Source of the DNA: an uncultured Candidatus Saccharimonas sp.
GTDB taxonomy: Bacteria; Patescibacteriota; Saccharimonadia; Saccharimonadales; AQU-01
Direction: 5' to 3'
Length of the DNA stretch: 62,574 nucleotides
Assembly: GCA_943358095.1 (NCBI GenBank)
Contig: CALRGT010000005.1
Location: 1 to 62,574, forward strand
The notes below the pieces were generated by a model, which was given only the letters and a program-made list of their open reading frames with translations, made no database searches and was not told the DNA's origin. Made by a program: the position numbers and the translations under genes. Shown here piece after piece: positions 10,728 through 62,574 of this stretch (position 1 is its first letter; every line of letters begins with the position of its first letter).

Positions 10728-10729
10728 TT

Positions 10730-11719: not shown

Positions 11720-11720
11720 C

Positions 11721-13710: not shown

Positions 13711-13799
13711 TCATTGAATCATTGATGCATTGACCATTGATTCATTAATTGACCCATTTAGCATGTGTCATTGTGGCTTCAATGATAAATATATTCAAT
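13711..13799. repeat. Dispersed quasi-palindromic intergenic repeat, copy B (left arm plus core; right arm truncated)
   Basis: CATTGA at 13712, 13720, 13728 and 13735, and CATTAA at 13743. Core CATTG-tggctt-CAATG at 13769-13784. About 80% identical to copy A over roughly 60 nt. Confidence 0.75.
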
Positions 13800-13844
13800 C
13801 TTGCTATTTCACTGAAGCCTCTAAACTGTTATGCTTATGCTAAT

Positions 13845-27959: not shown

Positions 27960-28937
27960 CTAACGAATATGTCCGGCTGTTTGGCCGACAATCAAACACA
28001 GACCGATTAGGCTAATTAGGGTAATGTCTAAAAGCATATGTGAGGCGACGTATTTTTCGCCTTTTCTTATCATTTTGTGTAGTTTTACTCCGTGTCTTGA
28101 GACTATTGTAAGAATTGCCAAAATAGATACGAGAACTGCGACAGTTGTAAGAATTGGTAATTTGCCGTTTGTGACCGTGGTTAGCCGTGAAATTTTGATT
28201 GTACTAGGCTCGACAAGAGGCCTAGCGTCAGTGTTGGGAGAAATAACGGCTACTGGTTCTGCAAATATTTGTGTTGTTGAGGTAGGCTTAGTGACAGCCG
28301 TGGCTGTTGGTGTGCTCTTTACGACTGGCGCAGATACGGGTGTTATTGGCACGAGCGGCATAGCATACTCTGCAACAACCACCGTCTCATTGCCGTTACT
28401 AACGTAATCGCTGGAATTTGCAAAGCCAAATCCTACTTCTTGAAACGAGCTATTAAGTAAATTCTCGCGGTGAGATGGACTATTCATCCAACCGGTAATA
28501 GTGTCGCCACTTGTCATGAATCCGAAAGCTAGATTTTCGCCTGCTTTGAAGTAAGCATAGCCTGCGTTATCAAAAAATGCCCACGGTTCAACACCATCTG
28601 GTGTGTTATGAGACCAGTAATTTCTGGTTACCATATCGTTAGCTTTTGCCTGGGCGGCTTGGTTTAATCTGGCGTTAATTGTAAGTGCGTTCAGTCCATT
28701 TAAAGAGCGTTGCTGATTCGTTTGCAACAATAAACTATCAACTCCAATGTTGGTGGCGTAGGCTAGAACGCCTTTTTTAGCATGAGGCTGCCACATGCTC
28801 GTGAAGACAATTCCGGTAACTAATATCAATATAAGTGGAATATAGGGAAGGTATACGTGCAGGAATTGTTTGGTATGTTTTTGATGTTTACCGTGACGCT
28901 TTTGGCTATGAGCACTGCGGTTGTTCGTTGCTGCCAT
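27960..28937 (-). CDS. CAP/SCP/PR-1-like domain membrane protein
   Basis: CAP core AAQAKANDM..WSHNTP..GENLAFG..GWMNSPSHRENLL, with one N-terminal and two C-terminal hydrophobic helices and a Thr/Pro-rich linker. Confidence 0.8.
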   Translation of the reverse strand: MAATNNRSAHSQKRHGKHQKHTKQFLHVYLPYIPLILILVTGIVFTSMWQPHAKKGVLAYATNIGVDSLLLQTNQQRSLNGLNALTINARLNQAAQAKANDMVTRNYWSHNTPDGVEPWAFFDNAGYAYFKAGENLAFGFMTSGDTITGWMNSPSHRENLLNSSFQEVGFGFANSSDYVSNGNETVVVAEYAMPLVPITPVSAPVVKSTPTATAVTKPTSTTQIFAEPVAVISPNTDARPLVEPSTIKISRLTTVTNGKLPILTTVAVLVSILAILTIVSRHGVKLHKMIRKGEKYVASHMLLDITLISLIGLCLIVGQTAGHIR

Positions 28938-29605: not shown

Positions 29606-31210
29606 ATGCTTATGTCACATGATATTCGACAAGATGAAGAGTTGTCTACCGCTAGGCGCGCCAAAGTTCTAGGTATGGACTACTTCGATACCTACAAGAA
29701 TAAAAGGCCTCTATTCAAACAAGTCCTAGCAGTTGGAGATATTAGGAAGTACCGCGTCGTACCTTTATTTGCAGATGAACACAATATTCTATTTGGTTTA
29801 ACTACTACGACTTCTCAACAGACTATCAACGGCTTAACACAGCATTTTCAAGACCAGCGAGTTGAGTATACTCTTATATCTGATACGGGTTTCAATGACT
29901 TTATGTTGCTGTACGACCCACCTAGGCAAGTTATTTATCAAGATATTGAAGTAGCATCAGCCGGAAATTCTGAACTGCTCAAAAAGGTATCTGCCATACT
30001 CGAACAGATTAAGGCCGATGACATGTTGGCTTATTTAGTTCAACAGGCTCACCGCCTCAATGCATCAGATATCCACTTTGAGAATCAGTCCAAATTTGCC
30101 AGAATCCGTTTTCGTATTGATGGAGTGCTGCATCCAATAGCGCAAATCAGCTTCGCTAAGGCTCATATTCTGATCTCAGCCATAGCCAGTGGAGCAAACG
30201 TCTCGACCGCCTCATTAGATGCGCAGCAGGGGCATATCGCAGAGAACACGAAAATGGCGGATGGTACTCAAGTTAGTATCAACTTGCGTGTCGAGACCGT
30301 ACCAGCTATCAACGGCATGGATATTGTCATGCGTTTATTCAATATGGACCAGAGTATGTACAACCTAGACAGATTGGGTCTATCTGACAAAGAAAGAAAA
30401 GTAGTAGAAGATATTATAGCTAAGCCGAGTGGTCTAGTCATGGTTGTCGGGCCTACAGGTTCTGGTAAGACTACGACTTTATATTCGATACTTCAAACTT
30501 TGAACACAGACGAGAATAAGATTATAACCATTGAAGATCCTGTTGAATATCAATTCGAAGGCGTGACTCAGATATCGGTAAACAATACTCCTGAGCATAA
30601 AACTAGCTTTGCCGATCAACTTAGAGCAGTATTAAGGCTCGATCCAGACGTCGTGATGGTTGGAGAGATTCGAGATAATGATACAGCCAAAACTGCTCTG
30701 CAGGCTGCTCTGACGGGACACCTTGTGTTGTCTACTTTTCACGCTAGTTCTGCGTCGGCTGCAATTACACGCATTATGGATATTATTGGCGAGAATCCAC
30801 TATTTCTATCTGCTATTCGATTAGTTATGGCGCAGCGACTTGTTAGGCGCCTAGATGATGCTATTAAGCAGCCCTATAAGCCTGACGAAAAGACCATGCA
30901 ACTAATTAAACAGGTAGTTGACGGACTTCCTGCTTCTGTAGAAAAGCCAAGTTTGGAAAACCTGCAACTCTATAAGCCAGGTGTATCTGAAGAAAATCCT
31001 TACGGCTATAAAGGCCAGTTGGCCTTGCGCGAACAATTCATAATGAGTGGACCAGTATATGAACTCTTGCAGAAGAGTCAAAAGTTAACAACTCAAGATA
31101 TTGAGGCTTCGGCTATAGAGAGCGGGATGACTACAATGTTGCAAGAAGGTGTTCTTAAGGCTATTAAGGGCGAAACTACACTAGAGGAAGTATATCGAGT
31201 CGTAGGATAG
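29606..31210 (+). CDS. pilB: Type IV pilus / type II secretion assembly ATPase (PilB/GspE family)
   Basis: N-terminal T2SSE_N-like domain, Walker A GPTGSGKTTT, Walker B VVMVGEIRD and His box GHLVLSTFHA. An alternative leaderless start is ATG 29612, 7 nt after TATACT (29599-29604). Confidence 0.88.
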   Translation: MLMSHDIRQDEELSTARRAKVLGMDYFDTYKNKRPLFKQVLAVGDIRKYRVVPLFADEHNILFGLTTTTSQQTINGLTQHFQDQRVEYTLISDTGFNDFMLLYDPPRQVIYQDIEVASAGNSELLKKVSAILEQIKADDMLAYLVQQAHRLNASDIHFENQSKFARIRFRIDGVLHPIAQISFAKAHILISAIASGANVSTASLDAQQGHIAENTKMADGTQVSINLRVETVPAINGMDIVMRLFNMDQSMYNLDRLGLSDKERKVVEDIIAKPSGLVMVVGPTGSGKTTTLYSILQTLNTDENKIITIEDPVEYQFEGVTQISVNNTPEHKTSFADQLRAVLRLDPDVVMVGEIRDNDTAKTALQAALTGHLVLSTFHASSASAAITRIMDIIGENPLFLSAIRLVMAQRLVRRLDDAIKQPYKPDEKTMQLIKQVVDGLPASVEKPSLENLQLYKPGVSEENPYGYKGQLALREQFIMSGPVYELLQKSQKLTTQDIEASAIESGMTTMLQEGVLKAIKGETTLEEVYRVVG

Positions 31211-35560: not shown

Positions 35561-36724
35561 ATGGAACTAGATATGAAACAACTAGCTGTTGCCGTTAAGG
35601 CTATAGCTGAGGAAAAAAACTTGCCCGAAGAGGCAGTTCAGGAAATTGTTGAACAGGCTCTTGCGGTAGCTTATCGCCGAGATTACGGCGACAGAGAGCA
35701 AGAAGTCCGCGTTACTATGAACTTGAACAACGGCGAAGTTGACGCTTATATTACAAAAGAAATTGTAGACACTGTAACCGACAAGCAATTCGAAATTAGT
35801 TTGGGCGACGCTCAAGTAGTTCGCAAAAATGCTGCAGTTGGCGAGACAATTGAAATACACGAAAAAGTTAATGACTTCGGTCGTGTTGCTGCCCAGAATG
35901 CAAAACAACATATCTTGCAAAGATTACGAGAAGCAGAACGCGAGACTATTATGACTGAATACGAAGATAAAATCGGTACAGTTATTAATGGTGTGGTCAG
36001 CAAGGTTGAGGGTAACATCGTACGAGTAGAGCTAGGAAAAGCACAAGGAATTATGCCTAAAAGTGAGCAGATTCAGAACGAGCACTATTATCCTGGCCAA
36101 AGAATCAAAGTATTTCTAAAGGACGTTGAACGTGGATTCCGTGGACCACAATTAGTTGTTAGTCGTGGTAACAAAGAATTTATTGAATGGCTATTTAGAG
36201 CAGAAGTTCCAGAAATGGAGAACGGCTCAGTCGAAATCAAGGGTATCGCCAGAGAAGCTGGTGTCCGTACTAAGATAGCAGTAAGTAGCTCAACTCCTGG
36301 AGTAGATCCAGTTGGCACATTCGTTGGCGGTCATGGTATGCGCGTTAATGCTGTCATGAGTGAAGTTGGCGAACAAGAGAAGATAGATATTGTAGTCTGG
36401 AATGAAGAAACTCGTGCATATATAACTAATGCTCTTAGCCCGACTAGAGTATCAAAAGTTACGCTAGATGAAGCAACCAAAAAAGCCACAGTAGTTGTGC
36501 CAGAAGATCAGCTAAGTATTGCTATCGGCAAAAGCGGTCAAAACGTACGCCTTGCAAGTAAGCTTGCTGGTTATGACATCGACATTGTTTCAGAAAGCGA
36601 ACAGCCTGTGTCTAAGACAGAGGCATCAGAAGTAAAAGTTACAAAACCATCCCTACCTAAGCTTAAGAAAAAGGAACAGCTGGAAAGCTCATTGCTAGAA
36701 GCTATCGAGGAGCACGGAGAGTAA
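35561..36724 (+). CDS. nusA: Transcription termination/antitermination factor NusA
   Basis: NusA N-terminal domain, S1 domain (GTVINGVVSKVEGNIVRVEL) and two KH domains (IAIGKSGQNVRLASKLAGYDIDI). AAAGGA SD 7 nt upstream. Confidence 0.93.
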   Translation: MELDMKQLAVAVKAIAEEKNLPEEAVQEIVEQALAVAYRRDYGDREQEVRVTMNLNNGEVDAYITKEIVDTVTDKQFEISLGDAQVVRKNAAVGETIEIHEKVNDFGRVAAQNAKQHILQRLREAERETIMTEYEDKIGTVINGVVSKVEGNIVRVELGKAQGIMPKSEQIQNEHYYPGQRIKVFLKDVERGFRGPQLVVSRGNKEFIEWLFRAEVPEMENGSVEIKGIAREAGVRTKIAVSSSTPGVDPVGTFVGGHGMRVNAVMSEVGEQEKIDIVVWNEETRAYITNALSPTRVSKVTLDEATKKATVVVPEDQLSIAIGKSGQNVRLASKLAGYDIDIVSESEQPVSKTEASEVKVTKPSLPKLKKKEQLESSLLEAIEEHGE

Positions 36725-36726
36725 AG

Positions 36727-37179
36727 ATGTCAGAAGAGCTTAATGGATATGAGCTCAGAGAATACGACGCACTTGATTTAATCAGGTCGTTCGAAAATGA
36801 CGAATTTCATAACAAATTAGGGGCTACTGTAATAATGACATACTCGCTTCATAGCGAGGGTTACGAAAAGGAAACTAGCCGAATAGCCTACGGTGCGGAG
36901 CTTCATGGTTTGGTTCAAGACGAAGATGAGCGTTGGAGCGCGGATGTTACCGAGACTATTGCTACGATCTATGACAAAAAAACACTGCCACAGTTGTATG
37001 CTAGCCATAGAGATCAAGAAGACGAAGTCCTGGAAGTGCCTATCACTTTTACTATGGCGGAAGCTTTAGCTGAGTTTCAGCGCAAGTCAGTAAAGTTGCC
37101 AATTGAGCCTGCAAGAATTTCTCGTAGGCTTGGGGACATCTGTTCGCTGGTTGTAAGCAGGCACTTTCCGACAATTTAA
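36727..37179 (+). CDS. Hypothetical acidic protein (150 aa) immediately after nusA
   Basis: ORF starts 2 nt after the nusA stop. No YlxR (RxC..C) or L7Ae motif. Confidence 0.6.
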   Translation: MSEELNGYELREYDALDLIRSFENDEFHNKLGATVIMTYSLHSEGYEKETSRIAYGAELHGLVQDEDERWSADVTETIATIYDKKTLPQLYASHRDQEDEVLEVPITFTMAEALAEFQRKSVKLPIEPARISRRLGDICSLVVSRHFPTI

Positions 37180-39889: not shown

Positions 39890-40858
39890 ATGCAAAGCAA
39901 AAAAGGCAAAGTAGGGTTAATAATTGTACTGATTTGTTTGGGTGCGACTGTATTTATTGGGAATAAAAGACAGTATATCTATGACCAAGCTAGGTTATAT
40001 GGCTATCAACCTCCAGAAAGCTTTATCCAGTTGGCGACCGATACGTCAATGAACGACAGGGCTAGGAATATACTTTATGTACAGCATCCAGAGTTGAACG
40101 ATAAGGAATCCTTCAATAATAATTGTCGATTTAACGAGCTAACAATAGTGCTCGGGTGCTACATATTAAATAAAGGCATCTATGTTTATGATATTACTGA
40201 TGACAGATTAGCTGGTATTCGGCAGGTTACTACTGCTCACGAAATGTTGCACGCCGCCTATGACAGGTTGAATGTCAAAGAGCGTGCTCAAGTTGATGCT
40301 ATGACCGCTGCGGCCTATGAAAAGCTAGATAACGCCAGAATAAAAAATGTAATTGATTTGTATCGTAAGGCTAATGCCAATGTTAGCAATGAACTACACT
40401 CAATATTGGGAACTGAAATCAGGAATTTACCATCAGATCTTGAGGCTTATTATAAAAAATATTTTAATGATAGAACCGCAGTAGTTGGATATTCTGAAAA
40501 ATACGAGCAAGTATTTACAGAAAGAAAAGATAAAATCGATAAAATGGACATCACCCTGAGTAGCATGAAAGTGTCTATAGAGCGGGCAGAAGCCGAACTA
40601 AATGCAGAGAATATTGATATAACAAATCGTAGGCAGGCTCTTGATCAAAAGTTTTCAGCCGGTCAATATAGCCTGTATAACAGTAGCGTGAACTCATTCA
40701 ATGCATCTATTCGGGCATATAACAGTAAAGTTGCTAGCACTAAGGCTCAGATAGACGAATACAACAGAATAATTGAAGAACGCAACGCAATCGCAGTCGA
40801 AGAACAGACGCTATACAAGGCTATAGATAGCCGTCTTACGACTCAAACAAACAAATAG
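39890..40858 (+). CDS. Hypothetical membrane-anchored protein with HEXXH motif and C-terminal coiled coil
   Basis: N-terminal TM helix VGLIIVLICLGATVFIG, then TTAHEMLHAAY (HEXXH), then ELHSILGTE, then a heptad-like C-terminal third. TGaTATACT at 39875-39883 lies 6 nt before the ATG. Confidence 0.65.
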   Translation: MQSKKGKVGLIIVLICLGATVFIGNKRQYIYDQARLYGYQPPESFIQLATDTSMNDRARNILYVQHPELNDKESFNNNCRFNELTIVLGCYILNKGIYVYDITDDRLAGIRQVTTAHEMLHAAYDRLNVKERAQVDAMTAAAYEKLDNARIKNVIDLYRKANANVSNELHSILGTEIRNLPSDLEAYYKKYFNDRTAVVGYSEKYEQVFTERKDKIDKMDITLSSMKVSIERAEAELNAENIDITNRRQALDQKFSAGQYSLYNSSVNSFNASIRAYNSKVASTKAQIDEYNRIIEERNAIAVEEQTLYKAIDSRLTTQTNK

Positions 40859-40915: not shown

Positions 40916-42268
40916 ATGGCAAAGAGAAATCAGGTGAAATATGTTTGTAGTAGCTGTGGCGCATCATCGGGCACTTGGTCAGGGCGTTGTAACGCCTGTG
41001 GTGAATGGAATACACTACAAGAACAAATTGTTATCACTGCCGGTAGTATCGCTTCTGGTGGAAACGTACTAAGCTCACAAAATGTTTCCGAAGTGTCTAA
41101 GCATGATTCTGCAAAAAGATTATTAACAGGCATAGATGAGGTCGACAATGTTTTAGGCGGTGGATTCGTTGCTGGTAGCGTAACTTTAATTGCAGGTCAG
41201 CCAGGTATAGGTAAAAGTACTTTATTATTGCAATTAGCAGACGCTGTCGCCAAAAAGCACAGTGTTTTATATATTAGCGGCGAAGAATCGGCGCATCAAG
41301 TAGGTCTAAGGGCTCAAAGACTAGGAGTTAAAAGCACTAACCTGCAATTATCAATGAGTACTGTAGCCGATGACATCGCGTCAACTATTGCGGAAGGTAA
41401 GTACGATTTAATAATTGTTGATTCTATTCAGGCGATATCTGCGAACGCTATATCTTCGGCAGCCGGCACGGTTAGTCAAATCACAAACAGCACTCAATTG
41501 TTGATAGTGGCAGCCAAACAGACCAACACTGCCCTAGTTGTAGTTGGTCATGTCACCAAAGAAGGTTCAATTGCTGGACCTAAAGTATTAGAGCACGTGG
41601 TTGATGTGGTGTTGCAATTAGAAGGTGATAGATATGGTGGATTTAAGCTTTTAAGAGGCGTAAAGAATCGTTTTGGATCTACTAACGAAACAGGTATTTT
41701 TGAAATGGTTGAGCAGGGGCTAATGCCCGTCAAGAATCCTTCAGCAGCGTTATTGGCGGAGCGTCAAGTCAGCGATGGATCTGTCGTTCTGGCTACTATG
41801 GAGGGCACGAGACCGTTGTTAGTCGAAGTTCAGGCACTTGTAAACAAAACAAGCTATGGCTACCCCAAACGAGCAGCTAGTGGGATGGATTTGAATAGAT
41901 TAAATCTGCTAGTTGCAATGTTAGAGCGCAGGACAAAACTTAATTTAGCAGAATTTGATATTTATATTAACATCGTAGGCGGAATCAAGATTACGGAACC
42001 AGCCGCAGATTTAGCCGTATGTATGGCTATTGCTTCTGCCGCTAAAGGGATGCAGCTCAAGAAAAACGCTGTAGTATTCGGCGAAGTTGGACTATCTGGC
42101 GAAGTTAGGCATGTGCCATATATCGACAAAAGAGTAGCAGAAGCAAAGAAGCTAGGTTTTGACGGAGCAATTGGTCCAATTATCAAAACGGGGAAGCAGC
42201 CTACTGGATTAAGCGGCGTGTTGGATGTTAAGTCTGCTCTAAATCAATTTCTCGAAAAAGATAGCTAG
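40916..42268 (+). CDS. radA: DNA repair protein RadA/Sms
   Basis: Zn ribbon CSSCG..CNACGEW, Walker A GQPGIGKST, KNRFG motif and a Lon-protease-like C-terminal domain. Confidence 0.93.
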   Translation: MAKRNQVKYVCSSCGASSGTWSGRCNACGEWNTLQEQIVITAGSIASGGNVLSSQNVSEVSKHDSAKRLLTGIDEVDNVLGGGFVAGSVTLIAGQPGIGKSTLLLQLADAVAKKHSVLYISGEESAHQVGLRAQRLGVKSTNLQLSMSTVADDIASTIAEGKYDLIIVDSIQAISANAISSAAGTVSQITNSTQLLIVAAKQTNTALVVVGHVTKEGSIAGPKVLEHVVDVVLQLEGDRYGGFKLLRGVKNRFGSTNETGIFEMVEQGLMPVKNPSAALLAERQVSDGSVVLATMEGTRPLLVEVQALVNKTSYGYPKRAASGMDLNRLNLLVAMLERRTKLNLAEFDIYINIVGGIKITEPAADLAVCMAIASAAKGMQLKKNAVVFGEVGLSGEVRHVPYIDKRVAEAKKLGFDGAIGPIIKTGKQPTGLSGVLDVKSALNQFLEKDS

Positions 42269-51323: not shown

Positions 51324-52634
51324 ATGGCACTAACAACACAACCATACAAAGGCACACGGGATTTCTATCCTGACGAAAAGCGCACACAAAATTATATTTT
51401 TGGAGTGATGCGCTCTGTTTCTGAGCGTTTTGGCTATGAGGAGTATGACGCGCCAATACTTGAGCCTATAGAACTTTACCAGGCTAAGAGTGGTGCAGAG
51501 ATCGTCAGCGAACAGACATACTTATTTACTGATCGTGGTGGCCGTCAGGTTGCGATTCGCCCCGAGATGACGCCTACTGTAAGCCGTATGGTAGCCGGCC
51601 GCCGGCAAGAGCTTGGATATCCGCTACGTTGGTACAGTATCCCTAATCTTATGCGCTATGAAAGACCGCAGCGTGGCAGACTACGTGAGCACTGGCAATT
51701 AAATGTAGATATATTTGGCGTTAAAGGACTAGAGGCGGAGCACGAAATTATAGCTTTGGCCGACGCAGTTATGCAGGGCTATGGAGCCAAACGGGACATG
51801 TACACTGTTAAGCTCAACAGTCGAAAGTTGATGGACTATTTGTTGGCAGACTATTTAGGTTTTGACGCCGAGCAGTCAACACGAATCGCAAAAATTATTG
51901 ACCATATGCATAAAGTTTCTACAGAAGTATTCCAAAAAGAAATTGATGATGTTTTAAGCGACTCACAACGGAGTAACAACACCGGGCAAAAGCTTGTTGA
52001 TTTGTTGAGTGTTAAGTCCCTAGACCAATTACCGTCTGAAGTTGCCGACAACACAGTAGCTGTTGAGTTGCAGAAATTATTAGATCTTTTGCAGTCATCT
52101 GGTATCACCAATGTCGTCTTTGATATTACGATCATGCGAGGCTTTGATTATTACACCGATATTGTATTTGAAGTAATGGACACTGACCCAGAAAACAATC
52201 GTTCAATGTTTGGTGGTGGCCGTTACGATGGTTTAGTTGGATTATTTGGTGTTGAGCCAGTCCCAACAGTTGGTTTTGGAATGGGTGATGTGACTATCGC
52301 TAACTTTTTGACTAGTCATAGCCTTATGCCGGAGCTAAAAGTCGTTACTGATGTTTATGTTGTGCTAGTCGGTGATGTTTATAGCCTTGCTCAAGCTACA
52401 ATTGCTAGTTTGCGAAGTCAGGGCCTAAATGTGGCCGTCGACACATCTGGTCGTAAGCCTGGCGATCAAATCAAGAACGCAGTAAAGAAGAACATTAACT
52501 TCGTCTTATTTATTGGCGAAAAAGAACTAGCAGACGGCAAATTTAGTCTTAAGAATTTAGCTGATGGTCAAGAATCAAATCTATCGGTAGAAGAAGTTGC
52601 CAGCGCAGTAAAAGCCTACCACCAAAGCAAATGA
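51324..52634 (+). CDS. hisS: Histidine--tRNA ligase
   Basis: Class II motifs (YEEYDAPILE, DRGGRQVAIRPEMT, RYERPQRGRLREHWQ, GGGRYDGL) and an anticodon-binding domain. ATG at 51324 lies 10 nt after TATAAT (51308-51313) and is preferred over GTG 51285. Confidence 0.92.
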   Translation: MALTTQPYKGTRDFYPDEKRTQNYIFGVMRSVSERFGYEEYDAPILEPIELYQAKSGAEIVSEQTYLFTDRGGRQVAIRPEMTPTVSRMVAGRRQELGYPLRWYSIPNLMRYERPQRGRLREHWQLNVDIFGVKGLEAEHEIIALADAVMQGYGAKRDMYTVKLNSRKLMDYLLADYLGFDAEQSTRIAKIIDHMHKVSTEVFQKEIDDVLSDSQRSNNTGQKLVDLLSVKSLDQLPSEVADNTVAVELQKLLDLLQSSGITNVVFDITIMRGFDYYTDIVFEVMDTDPENNRSMFGGGRYDGLVGLFGVEPVPTVGFGMGDVTIANFLTSHSLMPELKVVTDVYVVLVGDVYSLAQATIASLRSQGLNVAVDTSGRKPGDQIKNAVKKNINFVLFIGEKELADGKFSLKNLADGQESNLSVEEVASAVKAYHQSK

Positions 52635-53071
52635 CCGCTACAAACCATGTCGTAACTGGTGCACTTATTGCCATAACTATAAGTAACCCAGTTATTGGCC
52701 TGCCTTTGGCATTGTTGTCGCACTTGGTGCTTGATTCGATTCCACATTTTGGACTAGAAGATCTAAAGCTTGCTAAATTTGTTCCTATATTAATGACAGA
52801 TATTATATTCGCCGGTTCTGTGCTGGTGGCCTTACTTATTATTAGGCCTGAAAATTATTGGTTAATGGTAGCGGGTGGCATTATGGCTGCAAGCCCTGAT
52901 CTATTATCTATTCCATTATTTATTAGCATGATAAAGCGACGCAAGCATAAATTTGGTGTTGTGCAGCGATTTTTGCAGAAAATACAATGGAGCGAAACTG
53001 CTAAAGGTCTAGCTATAGAAGTGGTATGGTTTGGTTTTATTGGTGCTTTATTGCTACAAAAAATTCATTAG
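52631..53071 (+). CDS. Membrane protein, DUF457/YdjM-like putative metal-dependent hydrolase
   Basis: Four predicted TM segments. The N-terminal TNHVVTG, HLVLDSIPH and ASPDLL resemble YdjM-family motifs. ATGA overlap with hisS. Confidence 0.5.
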   Translation: MTATNHVVTGALIAITISNPVIGLPLALLSHLVLDSIPHFGLEDLKLAKFVPILMTDIIFAGSVLVALLIIRPENYWLMVAGGIMAASPDLLSIPLFISMIKRRKHKFGVVQRFLQKIQWSETAKGLAIEVVWFGFIGALLLQKIH

Positions 53072-53092: not shown

Positions 53093-54394
53093 TTGGTACA
53101 ATCTTCAGTCATGCGTATAAACAAATCAATCGACTCCGAAACTAAAATTACATTAACCATAACAGCTGACGAAGCTTTCTTGGCAAAAACCAAAGATCAC
53201 ACTCTTCGACATATGGCACGAGACATGAAGATACCTGGCTTTCGTGCTGGTAAAGCGCCTCTTGCAATTGTCGAAAAGCAAGTTGATTCAAATATGTTGC
53301 AATCTGACTTTTTGGACGAGGCAATTAACCGACTATACACTGATGCAATTAAGGCTGAAGGCTTGCGCCCTGTCGCTAATCCAGAAGTTTCACTAAAGAA
53401 GTTCGTACCTTTTACGGTACTAGAGTTTGAGGCTAAGGTAGAAGTTCTTGGTGAAATTAAGCTTGCTGACTACAAAAAGATCAAAAAAGCGCTAAAAGTT
53501 GTTGCAGTAACTGCCGAGGATGTAAATCTAATTATTAACAACTTGCAGACTAGACTAGCCGAGAAATCTGAAGTTAAGCGAGCCTCAAAGGATGGCGACG
53601 AAGTTATCATCGACTTTACTGGCGTAGACGCTAAAGGCGTACACATTGCTGGAGCTGAAGCCAAGGATTATCCATTAACTATTGGTAGCAACAGTTTGAT
53701 TCCTGGATTCGAACCAGAACTTATCGGCTTAAAAGCTGGCGAAGAAAAGACTTTTGATATCGTATTCCCAAAGGATTATCAGGCAAAAGCATTGGCAGGG
53801 ACAAAAGTTACCTTTACAACCACTGTACATACAGTCAACGAACTTAAATTACCAAAAGCTGACGACGATTTTGCAAGTAAAGCTGGACCTTTTGAAACTC
53901 TTAAAGCACTCAAAGATGATATCAAGAAGCAATTAACATTTGAGCGCGAAGCAGACGCCCAAAAGAATCTCGAAAACGAATTACTTGCAGAAATTACAGC
54001 TAAGTCAAAAGTTACTATTCCGCAAACAATGACAGAAGATCAAGTACAACGCACAGAGGACGAAGAGCGCAAAAACCTATTGTATCGTGGTCAAACATGG
54101 CAAGAACACTTGGCTGAAGAGGGCGTTAGCGAAGAGCAACATCGTGCTCAAAATCGACCAGCAGCCGAAGAATCTATTAAAACTGGCCTAATATTAGCCG
54201 AAATAGCCGAGCTAGAAAAGATAACCTTTACTCCTGACGAAGTAGACATCAGAATAGAGCTGCTAAAAGGCCAGTATACTGACCCAGCAATGCGCGAACA
54301 GCTGGCATCACCAGATAACCGCCGCGACATTGAAGGCCGTATCATGACAGAAAAGACTGTTGATGCTATCGTTGCCTACGCTCTAGGCAAGTAG
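53093..54394 (+). CDS. tig: Trigger factor
   Basis: Ribosome-binding PGFRAGKAP motif, FKBP-like middle domain (IPGFEPELIGLKAGEEKTF) and a helical C-terminal domain. TTG start at 53093; an alternative is ATG 53111. Confidence 0.9.
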   Translation: MVQSSVMRINKSIDSETKITLTITADEAFLAKTKDHTLRHMARDMKIPGFRAGKAPLAIVEKQVDSNMLQSDFLDEAINRLYTDAIKAEGLRPVANPEVSLKKFVPFTVLEFEAKVEVLGEIKLADYKKIKKALKVVAVTAEDVNLIINNLQTRLAEKSEVKRASKDGDEVIIDFTGVDAKGVHIAGAEAKDYPLTIGSNSLIPGFEPELIGLKAGEEKTFDIVFPKDYQAKALAGTKVTFTTTVHTVNELKLPKADDDFASKAGPFETLKALKDDIKKQLTFEREADAQKNLENELLAEITAKSKVTIPQTMTEDQVQRTEDEERKNLLYRGQTWQEHLAEEGVSEEQHRAQNRPAAEESIKTGLILAEIAELEKITFTPDEVDIRIELLKGQYTDPAMREQLASPDNRRDIEGRIMTEKTVDAIVAYALGK

Positions 54395-54404: not shown

Positions 54405-54431
54405 TTAGCACTCACTATTGACGAGTGCTAA
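54405..54431. promoter_or_regulatory. CIRCE operator (HrcA binding site), perfect consensus, upstream of clpP
   Basis: TTAGCACTC (54405-54413), N9 actattgac, GAGTGCTAA (54423-54431). Confidence 0.85.
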
Positions 54432-54446
54432 TTCGGTCTGTACAAT
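54418..54446 (+). promoter_or_regulatory. clpP promoter TTGACG-N17-TACAAT overlapping CIRCE; the ATG lies 7 nt after the -10 box
   Basis: TTGACG at 54418-54423 (spanning the spacer and right arm), TACAAT at 54441-54446, ATG at 54454. Confidence 0.5.
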
Positions 54447-54453
54447 TTTTACT

Positions 54454-55059
54454 ATGAGCGAACTACTTAGACCTACTAAATCTGCACTGATTCCGACTGT
54501 TATCGAAGGTGAAGGTCGAATGGAGCGCGCCTACGATATTTATAGCCGCCTACTACGCGATAGAATTATATTTTTGGGCGAAGATGTTAACGAGCATACC
54601 GCCAACTTGATTGTTGCGCAGCTATTATTCCTGGACAACGAAAGTAACGACAAAGACATATTCTTATATATTAACAGCCCCGGTGGTAGTGTTTACGACG
54701 CCTTAGCCATCTATGACACTATGCAATATGTTAAGAGCGACATCCAGACTGTCGGCATTGGCGTACAGGCCAGCGCAGCGGCATTCTTGCTAAGTAGTGG
54801 CACCAAGGGCAAGCGCACGATATTGCCAAACTCAACTGTTATGATCCACCAGCCATCAAGCGGCACTAGAGGTAAAGTAACGGATATGGAAATCGACCTT
54901 AAAGAATCTCTTCGTATTAAACACCGTCTAAATGAAATAATGGCTCGTAATACTGGCCAAACAGTTAAGAAAATTACCGAAGATATGGAACGCGATTATT
55001 GGATGACAGCCGAAGACGCCAAAAAATACGGCGTGGTTGATAAGGTTATAAGCAAATAG
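54454..55059 (+). CDS. clpP: ATP-dependent Clp protease proteolytic subunit
   Basis: Catalytic Ser in GVQASAAAF, His in MIHQPS and Asp in [14 protein letters not shown] at 54454 is preferred; the track's TTG at 54418 lies inside CIRCE. Confidence 0.93.
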
Positions 55060-55060
55060 A

Positions 55061-55190
55061 CAATTTATCATTTTTCATTGACCATTTGACATTTATTTAA
55101 CAATTGGACATTTAATCATTGTAGCTTCAATAAGAAATGACAAATGATTAATTAATGTATAAATGTATCAATGACAAAATGAATAAATTA
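55061..55190. repeat. Dispersed quasi-palindromic intergenic repeat, copy C (full length)
   Basis: The left arm is a CATT(T/G)N series at 55068, 55076, 55083, 55090 and 55109. Core CATTG-tagctt-CAATA at 55117-55132. The right arm is a complementary (T/A)CAATG/AAATGA series. It shares CAATTTATCATT and ATTAATGTAT..CAATG with the reverse complement of copy A. Confidence 0.75.
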
Positions 55191-55409
55191 TTATATATCC
55201 TTGACTCAAGGCTGATTCTTAGCTAAGCTATAAGATAAGAAGTAGTATAAGTAAGTATGTGCACTTATTTCTGATCAGTTATCGTGCACCAAAAAGCCGA
55301 CTTAGTAATCTTCGCTCTACAAATATAAAACCAAAAAGTTCTCTATTCGGGCACCGAAAAATTATAAATAACACTAAGTTTAAGGTTAAGCAGGGAGTAC
55401 TTTATTAGC

Positions 55410-58400
55410 ATGGCTAAAGCGATAACAACAACACCTAAAGAACGAGTATTTTATACAAAGACCGATGACAGTTTGGATCTACCAAATCTAGTCGATCACC
55501 AAAACAAATCATTCCAATGGTTTGTAGAAGAAGGACTAGGCGAACTATTAGCCGAGATTAGTCCCATCGATGACTACACAGGAACAAAACTTACCCTATC
55601 GTTCAAGGATTATCGTTTTGAAGATCCAAAATTGTCAGAAGCAGAAGCACGAGAGAACAACGTTAGCTATGACGCACCTCTAAAAGCTACTGTTGTTTTG
55701 ACAAACAAAGTTACTGGCGAAGTAAAAGAGCAAGAAATCTACCTTGGTGATTACCCATGGATGACGACTCGTGGAACTTTCGTTATTAACGGTGCTGAGC
55801 GTGTTGTTGTAAGTCAGTTGATTCGTTCAGCTGGTGTGTTCTTTACTGCCGACAACAAAGGTTCTCACAATCTATATGGCGCCAAAGTTATCCCTGGCCG
55901 TGGCGCATGGTTAGAGTTCGAGACCGCCGCTAACGGTGCTATTTTTGTTAAGATTGACCGCAAGCGCAAAATTCCTATCACGACTTTGCTACGAGCACTA
56001 GGTATGACTGACATTCAGATGCGCGAATCATTTGCTCATGTCGACCAAGGCAAGCTCAACTACCTAGAAGCAACAATGGAAAAAGACCCAGCTAAAGCTA
56101 ATAACGAAGCTTTGATTGAGGTTTATCGCCGTTTGCGACCAGGTGATCTTGCTACAGTAGAGAATGCCCGTTCACTACTAGAGAACATGTTCTATAACTA
56201 CAAACGATTCGACTTCAGTAAAGTTGGTCGTTATAAGATTAACAAGCGTTTGAATCTTGATGTTCCAAATGTTTTAGAGAAGCGCGTTATGCGTCTAGAA
56301 GATTTGATTGCGATTATTGCCGAAATTATTCGTCTTAATAATACTCAAGAACCAGCTGATGATATCGACAGTCTAGCTAACCGACGCGTTAAATTGGTTG
56401 GTGAACTTGTTCAGCGCCAATTCCGTATTGGTTTACTACGAATGGAACGAAATACTAAAGACCGAATGAGCATGAGTGAAATCGAGACAGTGTCACCAGC
56501 TCAATTGATCAATGCTCGTCCAATTGTTGCTGCTGTACGCGAGTTCTTCGCAAGCTCACAATTGTCGCAGTTCATGGATCAGATCAACCCACTAAGCGAA
56601 CTCGCTCACAAGCGACGCCTAAGCTCTATGGGACCTGGTGGTTTGTCACGCGAACGTGCAGGTTTTGAAGTTCGTGACGCTCATGCAACTCACTACGGAC
56701 GTATTTGTACTGTAGAAACACCTGAAGGTGCCAACATTGGTTTGGTGCTAAACCTTGCAAGCTATGCTCGTATTAATGACTATGGTTTTATTGAAACACC
56801 TTACCGCAAGGTAATTAACGCTGTTTCTGCTGCAAAGTCAGTTGGATATGAAGCTTCAGTTAATCTTGAAGACGAAAAAGGTAAAGTTATCGTTAAGGCT
56901 GGTGCTACTATCACAGCCGAAAACGCTAAGAAATTAGCAGAAGTTAAGAAGCAGGCTACATGGCCAGTACGCGCTAAAGTTACTAAGGAAATCGTTTATC
57001 TTGACGCTTCAGACGAAGAGCACGCAGTTATTGCCAGTGCTACTGAAGATATTGATGGTGACGGTTACTTCGTAGACGAGCGCGTAAGTGTTCGTAAGTA
57101 TCTAGCTTCTGGAGAAGTAGACGCTAACGAAGTTACTCACATGGATGCATCACGACGCCAGATTATTGGTTCTAGTGCTGCATTGATTCCGTTTATTGAA
57201 AAGAACTACGTTTATCGCTCATTGATGGGTAGTAACCAGCAGCGTCAAGCCGTACCTCTTATTGTTCCTGTAGCGCCAATTGTTGGTACTGGAATGGAAG
57301 GTATCGCAGCTCGTAACACTGGTCAGCTTATAGTAGCTGAAGCAGATGGTGAAGTTTTGAGTGCAAGCGCTGATGAAATCGTCGTTAAGTACAAAGAACG
57401 AACCGTTAAATATCACCCACAACACTATGTACGCAGTAACGAAGGCACTTGTATCAACCACAAAGTTGTTGTCAGTACTGGCGACAAAGTTAAGACTGGT
57501 GATCCTTTAAGTGAAGGTATGTCAGTTGCTGGTGGTGAGCTAGCTCTTGGTAAAGACTTAACTGTTGCGTTCATGCCTTGGTCTGGATACAACTTTGAAG
57601 ACGCTATCATCATTTCTCGCAAATTAGTCGAAGATGATACTTTGACATCTATTCATATCGTCGACTTCATGACCGAAGTTCGCGAAACTAAGTTGGGGCC
57701 TGAAATTGTCACACGAGATATTCCAAACGTTTCAGAAGAAGCTTTGCGACACCTTGATGACGACGGAATTGTCCGAATTGGTGCCGAAGTACATCCTGGC
57801 GATATTCTAGTAGGTAAAATCACACCTAAGGGCGAACAGGAACTAAGTTCTGAAGAACGATTGCTACGTGCTATATTTGGTGAAAAAGCTAAAGAAGTTC
57901 GCGATACTTCACAGCGTATGAGTAACGGTAAACACGGTAAAGTTGTTGGCGTAAAAGTATTCTCACGAGCTAATGGACACGAGCTTAAGGCTGGTGTTTT
58001 GATGCAGATTCAGATCTTCGTGGCTCAGATGCGTAAAATTGCTGTCGGCGATAAGCTAGGTGGACGTCACGGTAACAAGGGTGTTATCGCTCGTATTCTA
58101 CCAGTAGAAGACATGCCATTTAACGAAGCTGGTATGCCAGTAGATATCGTACTAAACCCACTAGGTATTCCTTCTCGTATGAACATGGGTCAGCTATTTG
58201 AAACTCACCTTGGCATCGCTGCTAAGATGCTCGGTATTAACGTTGCTAGCCCATCATTTAACGGTGTTAGCGTCGACAAAATTCGCAACCTGCTAAACGA
58301 AGCTGGACTACCAGAAGACGGCAAGCAGCAACTATTTGACGGCCGAACTGGCGAACCATTCAGAGAGCGAACAACTGTTGGCTCAATGTACATGATTAAG

Positions 58401-59009
58401 CTAAACCACATGATCGCAGATAAGATTCACGCTCGATCAACTGGACCATACACAATGGTTACACAGCAGCCACTAGGTGGTAAAGCTCAAAACGGTGGTC
58501 AGAGATTTGGAGAAATGGAAGTCTGGGCTCTAGAAGCTTACGGTGCTTCACACACTCTACAAGAAATGTTGACCATTAAGTCAGACGACGTTTACGGACG
58601 ATCAAAGGCCTACGAATCAATCATCAAGGGTACAGAAATTGTTGGACCAAAGGTGCCAGAAAGCTTTAACGTGTTAGTCAAGGAATTGCAGGGTCTAGGT
58701 CTTAAAGTTGACTTGATGACTGCCGATGCAATAATTGACGCCGAAAAAGTCCTTGCAGCAAGTATCAAGGAAGAAGCCGCTCACTTACCAGTAGTAGATG
58801 TACCAATGGATATGGCTTCAGCTGTAGATGTTACGACTGATGCAGTAGCTGACGAATTTCTAGAACTAGAACTTGACTCAGATATGCCAGTTGGTGGAAT
58901 AGAAGAAATAGAAAACGACCAAGACTTTACTGTAACTTTAACTGATGACGAAAACGGTCAGGATGTTACTGCCAAGGATGACGATAACGAAGGAGGATCA
59001 GCACTATGA
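55410..59009 (+). CDS. rpoB: DNA-directed RNA polymerase subunit beta
   Basis: Similarity across the full length of RpoB (e.g. GDKLGGRHGNKGV, NPLGIPSRMNMGQ, GGQRFGEMEVWALEAYGA), with an acidic C-terminal tail. 1199 aa. Confidence 0.97.
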   Translation: MAKAITTTPKERVFYTKTDDSLDLPNLVDHQNKSFQWFVEEGLGELLAEISPIDDYTGTKLTLSFKDYRFEDPKLSEAEARENNVSYDAPLKATVVLTNKVTGEVKEQEIYLGDYPWMTTRGTFVINGAERVVVSQLIRSAGVFFTADNKGSHNLYGAKVIPGRGAWLEFETAANGAIFVKIDRKRKIPITTLLRALGMTDIQMRESFAHVDQGKLNYLEATMEKDPAKANNEALIEVYRRLRPGDLATVENARSLLENMFYNYKRFDFSKVGRYKINKRLNLDVPNVLEKRVMRLEDLIAIIAEIIRLNNTQEPADDIDSLANRRVKLVGELVQRQFRIGLLRMERNTKDRMSMSEIETVSPAQLINARPIVAAVREFFASSQLSQFMDQINPLSELAHKRRLSSMGPGGLSRERAGFEVRDAHATHYGRICTVETPEGANIGLVLNLASYARINDYGFIETPYRKVINAVSAAKSVGYEASVNLEDEKGKVIVKAGATITAENAKKLAEVKKQATWPVRAKVTKEIVYLDASDEEHAVIASATEDIDGDGYFVDERVSVRKYLASGEVDANEVTHMDASRRQIIGSSAALIPFIEKNYVYRSLMGSNQQRQAVPLIVPVAPIVGTGMEGIAARNTGQLIVAEADGEVLSASADEIVVKYKERTVKYHPQHYVRSNEGTCINHKVVVSTGDKVKTGDPLSEGMSVAGGELALGKDLTVAFMPWSGYNFEDAIIISRKLVEDDTLTSIHIVDFMTEVRETKLGPEIVTRDIPNVSEEALRHLDDDGIVRIGAEVHPGDILVGKITPKGEQELSSEERLLRAIFGEKAKEVRDTSQRMSNGKHGKVVGVKVFSRANGHELKAGVLMQIQIFVAQMRKIAVGDKLGGRHGNKGVIARILPVEDMPFNEAGMPVDIVLNPLGIPSRMNMGQLFETHLGIAAKMLGINVASPSFNGVSVDKIRNLLNEAGLPEDGKQQLFDGRTGEPFRERTTVGSMYMIKLNHMIADKIHARSTGPYTMVTQQPLGGKAQNGGQRFGEMEVWALEAYGASHTLQEMLTIKSDDVYGRSKAYESIIKGTEIVGPKVPESFNVLVKELQGLGLKVDLMTADAIIDAEKVLAASIKEEAAHLPVVDVPMDMASAVDVTTDAVADEFLELELDSDMPVGGIEEIENDQDFTVTLTDDENGQDVTAKDDDNEGGSAL

Positions 59010-62000
59010 TGCGAAGATACAACAACAGTACAGATATCGCCGATTTTAACGCAGTTAGATTAGCTGTCGCCAGCCCTACTGATATTTTGGAATGGTCACA
59101 CGGCGAAATTACTAAGCCAGAAACAATCAACTATCGCACTCAGAAACCTGAGCGCGATGGTCTGTTCTGCGAAAGAATCTTTGGACCAGTTAAAGATATA
59201 AACCCACATGACGCTAAGTTCAAGGGCATGCGCAGCCGAGAAGCAGCAGTCGACAAGAACGGCGAAATCGTTACCAAAAGCATCGTACGACGTGAGCGAA
59301 TGGGTCATATTACTCTCGCTAGTCCAGTTGCACACATTTGGTTCCTTCGTGGGACACCGTCAGCTATTGGTCTAGTACTAGGCATGACTGTTAAGAACTT
59401 GGAAAGAATCGCTTACTTTGCCAGCTACATCATCAAAGAAGCTGATACTGCAAAGCGCGATACTATTCTAGCTGACAAAGAAGCTCAATACGTAGCAGCA
59501 CAAGAAGCTATTCGAATGCGCTACGAAAACGATGCTCACGCTGAGAACGCTGATGTTAAATCATTAGCAGCAGCTCAAACTAAAGAAATCGAAGAACTTA
59601 TTGCTGACTACGAACTAGCAAAAGAACAGCTTCAAGGTTTAGAGCGCTTACGACTTATCGGTGAAACTGATTACCGTAACCTACCAGATGATTTCCAGGC
59701 TTTGATTAAGGTTGGAATGGGTGGCTCAACACTAAAAGACATTCTAGAAACTGTTGACCTAGAAGATCTAATCAAGGATCTAAACGTAGAAGTTGAAGAA
59801 ACTAAGGGTCTTCGCAAGAAGAAGATCATGAAGCGACTTCGATTACTAGAAAGCATGCACCGTGCCGGCATTAAGCCAAGCAGCTTGTGTGTCACAGTAT
59901 TGCCAGTGATCCCTCCGGATCTTCGCCCTATGGTTCAGCTAACTGGTGGCCGTTTTGCGACATCAGACCTCAATGACCTTTACAGAAGAGTCATTAACCG
60001 TAACAATCGTTTGAAGAAATTGATTGATTTGAACGCTCCAGAAGTTATTCGTCGTAACGAGCAACGCATGCTTCAAGAGGCAGTTGACGCTCTAATCGAC
60101 AACAACAACGCTCGTTCAGGCCGTGCTGTAGCCGCTACAGGTCAGCGCCGCCGTCTTAAGTCACTCAGCGACATGTTAAAGGGCAAGCAAGGACGATTCC
60201 GTCAGAACTTGCTTGGTAAGCGTGTTGACTACTCTGGTCGTTCAGTAATCATTGCTGGTCCAGAACTTAAGATTTTCCAATGTGGTATGCCAAAGATGAT
60301 GGCGCTTGAACTATTCAAGCCATTTGTTATCGGTTACCTGATCACTAATGAGTTTGCACATAACATTCGTAGCGCAACTCGTATGATTGAAGCTGGTGAA
60401 ATCGCTGTATGGGATGCTCTCGACGAAGTAATTAAGGGCAAGTACGTGTTGCTAAACCGTGCGCCATCACTTCACCGTTTGAGTATCCAAGCTTTCCAAC
60501 CGATTCTAATTGAAGGTAAGGCTATCCAACTTCACCCATTAGTATGTAAAGGCTTTAACGCCGACTTTGACGGTGACCAAATGGCTGTCCACTTGCCACT
60601 TTCTGACGCCGCACAGGCCGAAGCTCGTGACATTATGGTTGCCAGCAAGAACTTGCTCAAGCCAGCAGACGGTTCGCCAATCCTACATATCGAACAAGAT
60701 ATCGTGCTTGGTTGTTACTACTTAACATACGAGCGCCCAGGTGCTCAAGCTGAACAGAAGTCATTCTCTGGTATTAACGAAGCTCTAATGGCTTACGACA
60801 GCGGTGTTATCGAATTGCAAGCAAAAGTACGTTTGCCGTTCCGTGGCGCTATGGTTGAAACGACTCTTGGACGCGTATTGTTTAACGAGATCTTCCCAGA
60901 AGATTTCCCGTTCCAGGACGAAACAATGACCAAGAAGAAGTTGCAGCAAGTTGTAGCATTGTCATACCAGAAGTACGGTCAATCAATAACTGCTACTATT
61001 GCAGATGATTTGAAAGACATCGGCTTCTTGTACGCTACTAAATCTGGTATCTCAATGGGTATGAATGACTTTAGTGACATTCCAACTCTTGATGCAATGA
61101 TTCAGGCTGGTGAAGATAAGACTACAGAAATCAGTGACCAATATGACCAAGGTTTCATTACAGAAGACGAGCGATATCGCTTAACAGTCGATACTTGGAT
61201 GAAGGCTGACGCTCAAATCCAACAGACTCTAAGTGAGCAGTTTGCTACAGAAGATAGCTCAATGGCTATCGCCGTTATATCTGGTGCTCGTGGTAACATC
61301 AGCCAGGTTAAGATGGCTGTCGGTTTGCTAGGTGTAACAACTGATGCAACTGGTCGTGCAATCGAACTTCCTATCAAGTCAGGCTACAAAAAAGGTCTTA
61401 CTCCACTAGAATACTTTACTGCTACTCGTGGTTCACGTAAGGGTATGATCGACACAGCCCTAAAGACAGCCGACTCAGGTTACCTAACTCGTCGTCTAGT
61501 AGATGTCAGCCAGGACGTATTCACTATTGCTGAAGATGTTGCTGACCCAGGATTCCCAATTTTCCGAAGCGACTCAGAAGAAATTGGCGTACCTTATGGT
61601 TCACGATTACGCGGACGATTCGCAGCTGAAAATATTGCAAAATTAGTCAAAAAAGGTGAGTTAATCACTATCGAAATATCTCAAGCAATTGAAGATGACA
61701 GCACTCTAGATGGTGTTAAGATCATGAGCGTTCTAAGTTGTACTAGCGTTAAGGGTGTGTCACGTAAGTCTTACGGACTAGACCCAGCTACTGGCGAACT
61801 AGTTGCTGCATATCACCCAGCCGGTGTTATTGCTGCACAAAGTATCGGTGAGCCAGGTACACAGCTAACTCTAAAGACATTCCACTCAGGTGGTGTTGCG
61901 GGTGAAGACATCACTACAGGTCTTCCACGTGTCGAAGAATTGTTCGAAGTTCGTACTCCTAAGGGTCAAGCATTCTTAAGCGAACTTGGTGGAGCAGTAT

Positions 62001-62574
62001 CAGTCTGGGAAGATGGTGACCATTACGTAGTACAGATTACAGCCTCAGAAGATGCGATTGTTGAACTAGCTGTTGCTGGTAGAATTAATCAAATCAAGAA
62101 TAATGCTGAAGTAGCAATTGGCGACATAGTTGCTTCTGCTGAAGACGGTAGCGATCCATTAATCTCACCAGTTGCTGGCAAAGCGCATGTTACCAAGAAG
62201 CTGATTACAATATCACCTACTAAGCAGAGTGTTGCTCGCTACGAAATCCCAAGTTACAAGCAAGTTCTCGTTAAAGATGGCGACACAGCAGTAGCTGGTC
62301 AAAGACTTACTAACGGTTCAATTAACTTGCATGAGTTGATGGCATTGCAAGGTGTTGAGGCAACTCAGCGCTATATCATGAACGATATTTTGAAGATCTT
62401 TGCATCACAGGGTCAAAACATTAACGACAAGCACCTTGAAGTTATTGTTAGACAGATGTTTAGTCGAGTACAGATAGAAGAAACAGGCGATAGTCAGTTT
62501 GTTATCGGCGACGTTGTAAGTAAATTGGCAGTAGTTGAAGCTAATGAAGAACTAACCGCTGACGACAAGAAGCC
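59006..62574 (+). CDS. rpoC: DNA-directed RNA polymerase subunit beta-prime (3' end lies outside the window)
   Basis: Absent from the ORF track because there is no stop codon in the window. ATG at 59006 overlaps the rpoB stop (ATGA), with AGGAGG at 58991-58996. My own translation gives [64 protein letters not shown] (60557 onward) and [21 protein letters not shown]. Confidence 0.95.
   Translation, partial: [1189 protein letters not shown]

Follow-up and report, generated by a model that had tools for sequence, protein, structure and literature searches.

The rpoBC locus

This analysis concerns rpoC, the gene for the β′ subunit of RNA polymerase (RNAP), at the end of a 62,574-nucleotide stretch of DNA from an uncultured Candidatus Saccharimonas species (contig CALRGT010000005.1 of assembly GCA_943358095.1), a freshwater member of Candidatus Saccharibacteria (TM7, Patescibacteria); this stretch is called the window here. 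Textbook descriptions of bacterial RNA polymerase include two structural zinc ions in β′. One belongs to the N-terminal zinc-binding domain (ZBD) and the other (Zn-II) to a module between the bridge helix and the trigger loop, and the cysteine ligands of both sites are degenerate in the window. The genes and domains concerned are as follows.

55410-59009, forward strand: rpoB (β subunit), 1199 amino acids, Pfam RNA_pol_Rpb2 domains 1-7, only 2 Cys
59006-62574, forward strand: rpoC (RNA polymerase β′), 5' 1189 codons, continuing past the window end
59195-59275, forward strand: degenerate N-terminal ZBD, DINPHDAKFKGMRSREAAVDKNGEIVT, residues 64-90, same length as the canonical domain
60557-60583, forward strand: catalytic Mg2+ motif NADFDGDQM, intact, residues 518-526, invariant in both alignments scored
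61523-61810, forward strand: Zn-II module without metal ligands, residues 840-935, between the C-terminus of the bridge helix and the trigger loop

The rpoC frame starts with the ATG at 59006, which overlaps the rpoB stop codon as ATGA according to the translation and the junction sequence, and the rpoB-rpoC operon arrangement is present. An identical full-length β′ in the protein collection (P0001, 1267 amino acids) represents 31 member sequences. The subunit matches 110 distinct PDB β′ sequences at E = 0, its homologues have PF04997, PF00623, PF04983, PF05000 and PF04998 (Rpb1 domains 1-5), and the closest named ones are all DNA-directed RNA polymerase subunit beta' of Candidatus Saccharibacteria or Saccharimonadales. 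Both the bridge-helix motif SGYLTRRLVDV and the trigger-loop motif AAQSIGEPGTQLT occur in its translation. An AlphaFold2 (AF2) model built on a 149-sequence alignment has a mean predicted local distance difference test (pLDDT) score of 77 and template modelling (TM) scores of 0.70-0.73 to solved β′ chains, including 8i23_D and 6jcx_D. An earlier AF2 model from 52 close Saccharibacteria only (mean pLDDT 56, TM about 0.2 to solved β′) was discarded; the broader alignment restored the global β′ fold. Apart from its zinc sites, the β′ subunit is ordinary. There is one rpoC in the window and one in each of at least 119 loci, a count that applies to these loci and not to whole genomes, in which no search for a second copy was made.

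Upstream of rpoBC lie the genes for trigger factor (53093-54394) and then clpP (54418-55059), instead of the usual rplKAJL. A 350-bp noncoding gap (55060-55409) precedes rpoB; a promoter or leader could lie in it.

Ligand columns of the Zn-II site

Five codons are relevant to the second zinc site.

61538-61540, forward strand: V845 (GTT), Cys814-equivalent column, from HMMER alignments and relatives that keep Cys there
61541-61543, forward strand: A846 (GCT), taken for the Cys814 column in an earlier note on this DNA, one codon 3' of the true column
61739-61741, forward strand: C912 (TGT), Cys888 equivalent and sole surviving ligand-column Cys, from HMMER alignments to solved β′
61760-61762, forward strand: S919 (TCA), Cys895-equivalent column, from HMMER alignments; a TCT population variant is synonymous
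61769-61771, forward strand: S922 (TCT), Cys898-equivalent column, from HMMER alignments to solved β′

The window β′ reads ...RRLVDVSQDVFTIAEDVADPGF... over the Cys814 region and ...KIMSVLSCTSVKGVSRKSYGLDPATGELVAAYHPAGVIAAQSIGEPGTQLT... over the knuckle. HMMER alignments to solved structures (Clostridium thermocellum 8i23, Staphylococcus aureus 8x6f and others) put C912, S919 and S922 under the three knuckle cysteines, and the window knuckle SVLSCTSVKGVSRKSYGLDPATGE pairs with that of C. thermocellum. The earlier note, which was made from the sequence alone, held that three of the four Zn-II cysteines are replaced. The alignments bear this out, with only C912 remaining, and the three knuckle codons that it named (TGT at 61739-61741, TCA at 61760-61762 and TCT at 61769-61771) are exact. 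Its assignment of an Ala at 61541-61543 to the Cys814 column was wrong by one codon. Instead, V845 lies under the Cys of (E/D)DCG in 7/7 alignments printed over that stretch, and close relatives that retain the cysteine read TIDEDCEDPGF where the window reads TIAEDVADPGF. The possibility of a shifted alignment was therefore real, but the conclusion holds because the correction gains no Cys or His; there is none near V845 or within reach of any ligand column in the window translation. A canonical Cys4 arrangement is thus absent, with V845, C912, S919 and S922 at the four columns.

In other respects the module resembles the canonical one. It occupies the same place between bridge helix and trigger loop of the same protein, and it keeps the flanks RRLVDVxQD, xYGxD and AAQSIGEPGTQLT, whose conservation had been claimed correctly before. 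Its length is nearly equal, with 67 residues from V845 to C912 versus 74 from Cys814 to Cys888 in Escherichia coli, a difference of 7. The window differs in having V845, S919 and S922 for Cys, M907 for Arg and P927 for Leu. RpoC has six scattered cysteines and RpoB two, and no CxxC pair or alternative Cys cluster occurs in either translation, so no new cluster replaces the lost sites. C912 is most likely a relic of the lost site.

A poor consensus, a frameshifted assembly or a misalignment might in principle conceal real cysteines. The window sequence is metagenome-like, and the off-by-one Cys814 column showed that the region can be misaligned. This explanation is virtually ruled out, however, by contigs of four independent lake-water metagenome runs that span 61450-61850 at 95-99% identity with the same codons and no indels. 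These contigs have two differences in the knuckle, at 61756 (third base of G917) and 61762 (S919, TCA to TCT), and both are synonymous. Words of the window sequence were found in at least 20 lake-water or freshwater metagenome runs from a dozen studies. In addition, the same protein stands for 31 member sequences, relatives lack the Cys895 and Cys898 equivalents, and the pattern persists in 195 sequences from different species. The low-quality consensus that the earlier note allowed for is accordingly excluded.

The N-terminal zinc-binding domain

All four ligand cysteines of the ZBD are replaced, as had been proposed. The window region GPVKDINPHDAKFKGMRSREAAVDKNGEIVTKS aligns without gaps to GP[TS]KDWECYCGKYKxIRYKGxxCDKCGVEVTRS of zinc-containing Patescibacteria, and P67, D69, V82 and N85 fall in the Cys70, Cys72, Cys85 and Cys88 columns, leaving 0/4 Cys of the CxC...CxxC pattern. 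The position and length of the domain are identical to those of the canonical ZBD, and the basic residues K71, K73, R76, R78 and K84 are retained; its fold, unlike that of the canonical domain, is not confidently predicted. The ZBD equivalent is almost invariant across 52 close Saccharibacteria, which indicates purifying selection.

With one Cys in the four Zn-II columns and none in the four ZBD columns, neither canonical Cys4 site of β′ can form. This agrees with the view of the earlier note, and the same is true throughout the Saccharibacteria clade.

Distribution within Saccharibacteria

Every one of the closest 120 homologues, all Saccharibacteria at 77-100% identity, is missing the ZBD cysteines as well as the equivalents of Cys895 and Cys898 (120/120). 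A DNA pattern for FGPxKD[IV][NS]PHD scanned over GTDB species-representative contigs matched at least 119 contigs, nearly all of them titled Saccharibacteria, Saccharimonadales, Saccharimonas, Nanosynbacter or Nanoperiomorbaceae. Cysteine is absent from the Cys895 and Cys898 columns in every locus long enough to reach Zn-II (0/75), and Zn-II loss is accompanied by complete loss of the ZBD cysteines in 75/75 of these species-representative loci. Three contigs with a Saccharibacteria-type zinc-less rpoC come from metagenome-assembled genomes titled Dongiaceae (L039), Candidatus Dormiibacterota (L066) and Candidatus Nomurabacteria (L077); these are probably mis-binned or mislabelled.

When 195 Saccharibacteria sequences are pooled, 101 have no Zn-II ligand cysteine, 67 have one and 27 have two, and three or four never occur. 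Column 845 contains 16 residue types. Column 912 contains six, with Cys in 94/195 and T, S, A, Y or N in the others. Column 919 contains eight (P/S/G/T/A/N/H/Q) and never Cys, and column 922 is Ser in 174/195 and Ala in 21/195, also never Cys. Such free variation of the former ligand columns is as expected once metal binding ceased. Between and around these columns G917, Y923, G924, D926-P927-A928-T929, D847 and G849 are invariant in the alignment of close Saccharibacteria.

The same alignments bear on whether the sites have been rebuilt with His, Asp or Glu (H68, D69, D83 and E87 in the ZBD; D844 and D847 at the knuckle) so that zinc or another metal is still bound. The invariance of P67-H68-D69, D83 and E87 in the 52 close Saccharibacteria is compatible with this idea, as are the acidic residues on both sides of column 845. 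Deeper branches of the clade differ, however: the P0121 group has VDKEGNLV with Asn at position 87, and P0124 has INPFSHRYRG, with neither His68 nor Asp69. The hypervariable Zn-II columns are filled mostly by Ala, Val, Pro, Ser, Thr and Gly, which do not bind metal, and the Arg-to-Met replacement described below is easier to reconcile with a charged centre that was removed than with one that was rebuilt. Rebuilt sites were rejected because the deeper branches do not conserve the candidate residues, and we regard such sites as quite unlikely.

A further alternative is that the zinc-ribbon function is supplied in trans by a small zinc-binding protein, separate from β′, that docks on it. It has no direct support, although members of the Candidate Phyla Radiation (CPR) are rich in small uncharacterised proteins and several window open reading frames (ORFs) lack a Pfam match. 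In 62 Saccharibacteria loci, no conserved ORF with a CxxC...CxxC motif was found in the 5 kb upstream of rpoC or in the 2.5 kb that follow it; there were only five sporadic matches, in short or antisense frames. Zn-II also belongs to the interior of the fold and offers no surface for docking, and its module keeps its full length. Supply in trans is consequently highly improbable.

Other Patescibacteria and recurrent loss of Zn-II

To place the double loss, we compared the 150 nearest β′ clusters at 50% identity from a search of 1.84 billion cluster representatives, which turned up roughly 32,000 β′ homologues. Both zinc sites are canonical in nearly all 150, and both are lost only in four Saccharibacteria-like clusters (P0121-P0124). 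One fragment (P0137) lacks the Zn-II cysteines, with the ZBD outside its span. Beyond these, the nearest representatives come from other Patescibacteria (Peregrinibacteria, Parcubacteria, Uhrbacteria, Buchananbacteria and Peribacteria). Both sites are kept in 118/118 β′ sequences from other Patescibacteria; the full 4+1+3 Cys were counted in 117, and P0524, the other one, did not match the ZBD pattern. In a neighbor-joining tree with both zinc regions masked, the 19 Saccharibacteria-type sequences sampled form one clade beside zinc-containing Patescibacteria. Since they form a single clade and other Patescibacteria keep both sites, the double loss is, on these comparisons, derived and shared by Saccharibacteria; it does not characterise the CPR in general. 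Four representatives (P0231, P0243, P0245 and P0246) that appeared to have an anomalous ZBD were rejected as alignment effects of indels, and they keep all cysteines.

Loss of Zn-II alone occurs elsewhere. Four of the 150 representatives (P0174, P0187, P0189 and P0215) have a perfect CxC...CxxC ZBD and no Zn-II cysteines. The P0174 family belongs to the Verrucomicrobiota orders Opitutales/Puniceicoccales and includes the cultured Cerasicoccus arenae and Rubellicoccus peritrichatus. Its relatives (P0290-P0408) lack the knuckle cysteines in about 110 of 119 cases and have Asp in the Cys814 column, with a knuckle of the form LTHxxxNxxxAxAYGI[DN]P[AS]T and an intact N-terminal Cys4 ZBD. P0187, P0215 and P0189 represent two or three further lineages, and the losses that spare the ZBD fall at three separate places in the tree among zinc-containing sequences. 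The reverse case, a lost ZBD with Zn-II kept, was not seen among the β′ sequences compared.

These results qualify two points of the earlier note. The two losses, whose co-occurrence it had proposed to test, are always found together within Saccharibacteria, but across bacteria Zn-II is also lost alone. The Zn-II loss itself is confirmed, but it is less exceptional than was implied because it has also taken place in Verrucomicrobiota and at least two other lineages.

Coupled substitutions and a predicted metal-free knuckle

Comparison of residues between groups identifies two substitutions in the window that accompany the missing ligands.

61724-61726, forward strand: M907 (ATG), replaces Arg at -5 from the Cys888 column
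61784-61786, forward strand: P927 (CCA), replaces Leu/Met after the CYGxD motif

The -5 position is Arg in 110/116 Zn-II-containing sequences and Met, Leu, Gln or Cys in 27/28 Zn-II-less sequences, which represent at least four independent lineages. Met occupies this column in 132/195 Saccharibacteria, and the conserved Arg, a feature defined empirically here, is absent from the window in favor of M907. The position following CYGxD is Leu or Met in 100 of the 116 Zn-II-containing sequences and Pro in four, versus Pro in 21/28 Zn-II-less sequences and 148/195 Saccharibacteria. Replacement of Arg by Met or Leu, often with replacement of Leu by Pro, thus accompanies ligand loss in each of the independent lineages and is convergent in the residues compared. 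We considered, and rejected, the idea that the Zn-II module had passed horizontally between Verrucomicrobiota and Saccharibacteria. Over 40 knuckle residues, counted by hand from group consensus residues, the Saccharibacteria are identical to Verrucomicrobiota at 16/40 and to zinc-containing Patescibacteria at 17/40. The knuckle is no closer to the former than to the latter, which makes convergence the better reading.

The Opitutales/Puniceicoccales β′ therefore resembles that of Saccharibacteria in having lost its Zn-II cysteines together with coupled Arg-to-Met and Leu-to-Pro changes. It differs in that its ZBD keeps four Cys and in its independent origin, nested among zinc-containing sequences.

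Structure prediction, which the earlier note had recommended for seeing what replaces the knuckle, gave a divided answer. The Zn-II module is modeled confidently (residues 840-940 have an AF2 pLDDT of about 83-91), unlike the ZBD equivalent; the replacement by packing is our interpretation. Because the length of the module is kept and its model is confident, a metal-free knuckle packed by side chains likely takes the place of the Zn-II metal.

The following sequence of events could explain these observations. The functional rpoC of Saccharibacteria lost the Cys4 ligands of both sites, and the loss became fixed in the clade. The Zn-II module stayed near full length; its metal cross-link would be gone and side-chain packing would substitute for it. 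The Arg at -5 may normally lie beside the negatively charged Zn(Cys)4 centre and balance it or hydrogen bond with it. Once this centre is gone, the hydrophobic side chain of Met or Leu could fill the space, and the change from Leu to Pro after CYGxD may stiffen the following turn. The former ligand columns would be free to drift, with C912 left over. The full-length ZBD with its basic residues probably still acts without metal at the face of the enzyme where RNA exits and upstream DNA lies. A core enzyme of this kind would most likely contain catalytic Mg2+ only and no structural Zn2+.

NusA acts close to the ZBD, at the RNA-exit face of RNAP, and its gene lies in the window (35561-36724, with NTD, S1 and KH domains); this partner possibly co-varies with the zinc-less ZBD.

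Zinc use elsewhere in the window

A zinc ribbon in another protein of the window serves as an internal control.

40946-40999, forward strand: RadA N-terminal zinc ribbon CSSCGASSGTWSGRCNAC, 4/4 Cys, PF18073 in the ORF at 40916-42268

This ribbon is the only CxxC...CxxC motif in any window ORF. Other window genes code for an M1 zinc aminopeptidase and a class II fructose-bisphosphate aldolase. Because the RadA ribbon is kept and these two enzymes are encoded, the organism is not zinc-free, and the change is specific to the polymerase.

The control is informative about one more explanation, namely that relaxed selection in a symbiont with a reduced genome has left the sites decaying and the polymerase partly impaired, with no compensation. 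Saccharibacteria are known in general as small-genome epibionts, their former ligand columns drift freely, and the proteins of the window are poor in Cys overall (0.48% of residues over 50 window ORFs). Decay of this sort would not be expected to spare the RadA ribbon, nor would it leave G917, Y923, G924, D926-T929, D847 and G849 invariant and the ZBD equivalent almost so. The same coupled substitutions also occur in free-living Verrucomicrobiota, and other Patescibacteria with equally small genomes retain both sites. Uncompensated decay is therefore unlikely.

The reading that we prefer is that both Cys4 sites were lost and the loss fixed across the clade, so that the core most likely works with no structural zinc, and we assign it a probability of about 0.78. 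The zinc-independent RNAP core that the earlier note suggested for this lineage thus finds support at the sequence level. Several points weigh against it. The absence of bound zinc is deduced from the absence of ligands. The evidence covers β and β′, with α and ω outside the window. A confident Zn-II model says little about zinc-free folding, as AF2 ignores metals and follows homologues. Over the ZBD equivalent the pLDDT is below 50, and a ribbon-like fold is not established there. The charge-compensating role of the conserved Arg is our own suggestion, and the tree that places the clade is a simple distance tree. Finally, Cys at column 845 is always accompanied by Cys912 (27/27, versus Cys912 in 94/195 overall), which could reflect a residual two-Cys interaction in some members instead of pure drift, and which may also be explained by shared ancestry.

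Relation to known systems

According to work attributed to Markov et al. 1999 (Genes Dev 13:2439), the Zn-II site of E. coli (Cys814/Cys888/Cys895/Cys898) is reportedly needed for enzyme assembly, its Cys mutants failing to assemble, and the E. coli ZBD (Cys70/72/85/88) is said, after King et al. 2004 (J Mol Biol 342:1143), to modulate termination and antitermination. The Saccharibacteria enzyme would differ from that of E. coli in evidently assembling without a site that is assembly-essential there. The closest parallel may be the zinc-independent "C-minus" proteins reportedly described by Makarova, Ponomarev and Koonin in 2001 for ribosomal proteins L31/L33/L36/S14 and by Blaby-Haas et al. 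in 2011 for DksA2 of Pseudomonas. Like these, both β′ sites exchange a structural Cys4 site for non-ligand residues and keep their length and flanks. The C-minus proteins are usually extra paralogues that are induced by Zur under zinc starvation, whereas Saccharibacteria appear to have converted their only orthologue permanently, across a class-level lineage and in a catalytic RNAP subunit. The enzyme itself is very well known, and this metal-free variant of it is not a new kind of system.

Our search of the literature turned up no account of β′ zinc-site loss in any bacterium, and none of the Zn-II loss in Opitutales/Puniceicoccales; most subscription journals were outside this search, and prior mention is possible. 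PMC11112998 cites both Markov et al. 1999 and King et al. 2004, and a paper on erosion of endosymbiont RNAP (PMC8321222) mentions zinc fingers in passing only. On balance we think it more likely than not that Saccharibacteria provide the first recognised cellular multisubunit RNAP with a core that lacks structural zinc and with a knuckle replaced according to a convergent rule.

If this is true, RNA polymerase is not a universal reason for the cellular need for zinc. The rule itself (Cys4 removed, Arg to Met or Leu at -5, Leu to Pro after the knuckle) would be an example of packing that replaces the assembly-critical Zn-II knuckle, and the substitutions offer a concrete, testable basis for engineering a zinc-free one. 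A class-level lineage without either site is a natural experiment on what the metal contributes, and Verrucomicrobiota that lack only the second site supply another comparison. The lineage includes the cultivable, human-associated Nanosynbacter group, and such relatives make the zinc-free prediction directly testable. The finding would also have a bearing on how ultra-small epibiotic bacteria economise on zinc and how sensitive they are to oxidants. Its significance is tempered by the fact that Zn-II loss alone has arisen several times elsewhere. According to the titles and abstracts of papers on them, Q proteins, RapA and fidaxomicin are factors or inhibitors that contact the ZBD, and they may act differently on the Saccharibacteria enzyme.

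Other features of the window

Transketolase is split between two adjacent ORFs, of which the first (9861-10727) encodes the N-terminal half that binds thiamine pyrophosphate and the second (10730-11719) the pyrimidine-binding and C-terminal half. They lie within a pentose-phosphate and glycolysis cluster (7756-13709) with GAPDH, RpiB, Rpe, class II FBP aldolase and a PfkB kinase. Six ORFs of 112-450 amino acids have no Pfam match at the thresholds used (7316-7654, 13749-15101, 17800-18624, 36727-37179, 39890-40858 and 52631-53071).

An ORF of the CAP/SCP family (cysteine-rich secretory protein; 27960-28937, reverse strand) adjoins a type II/IV secretion ATPase (29606-31210, forward strand). 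A pilus-dependent epibiotic lifestyle has been described for Saccharibacteria, and this pair of genes is compatible with it. Every 2-kb bin has a positive GC skew and the forward strand carries nearly all genes, which probably places the window inside a single replichore, with its genes on the leading strand.

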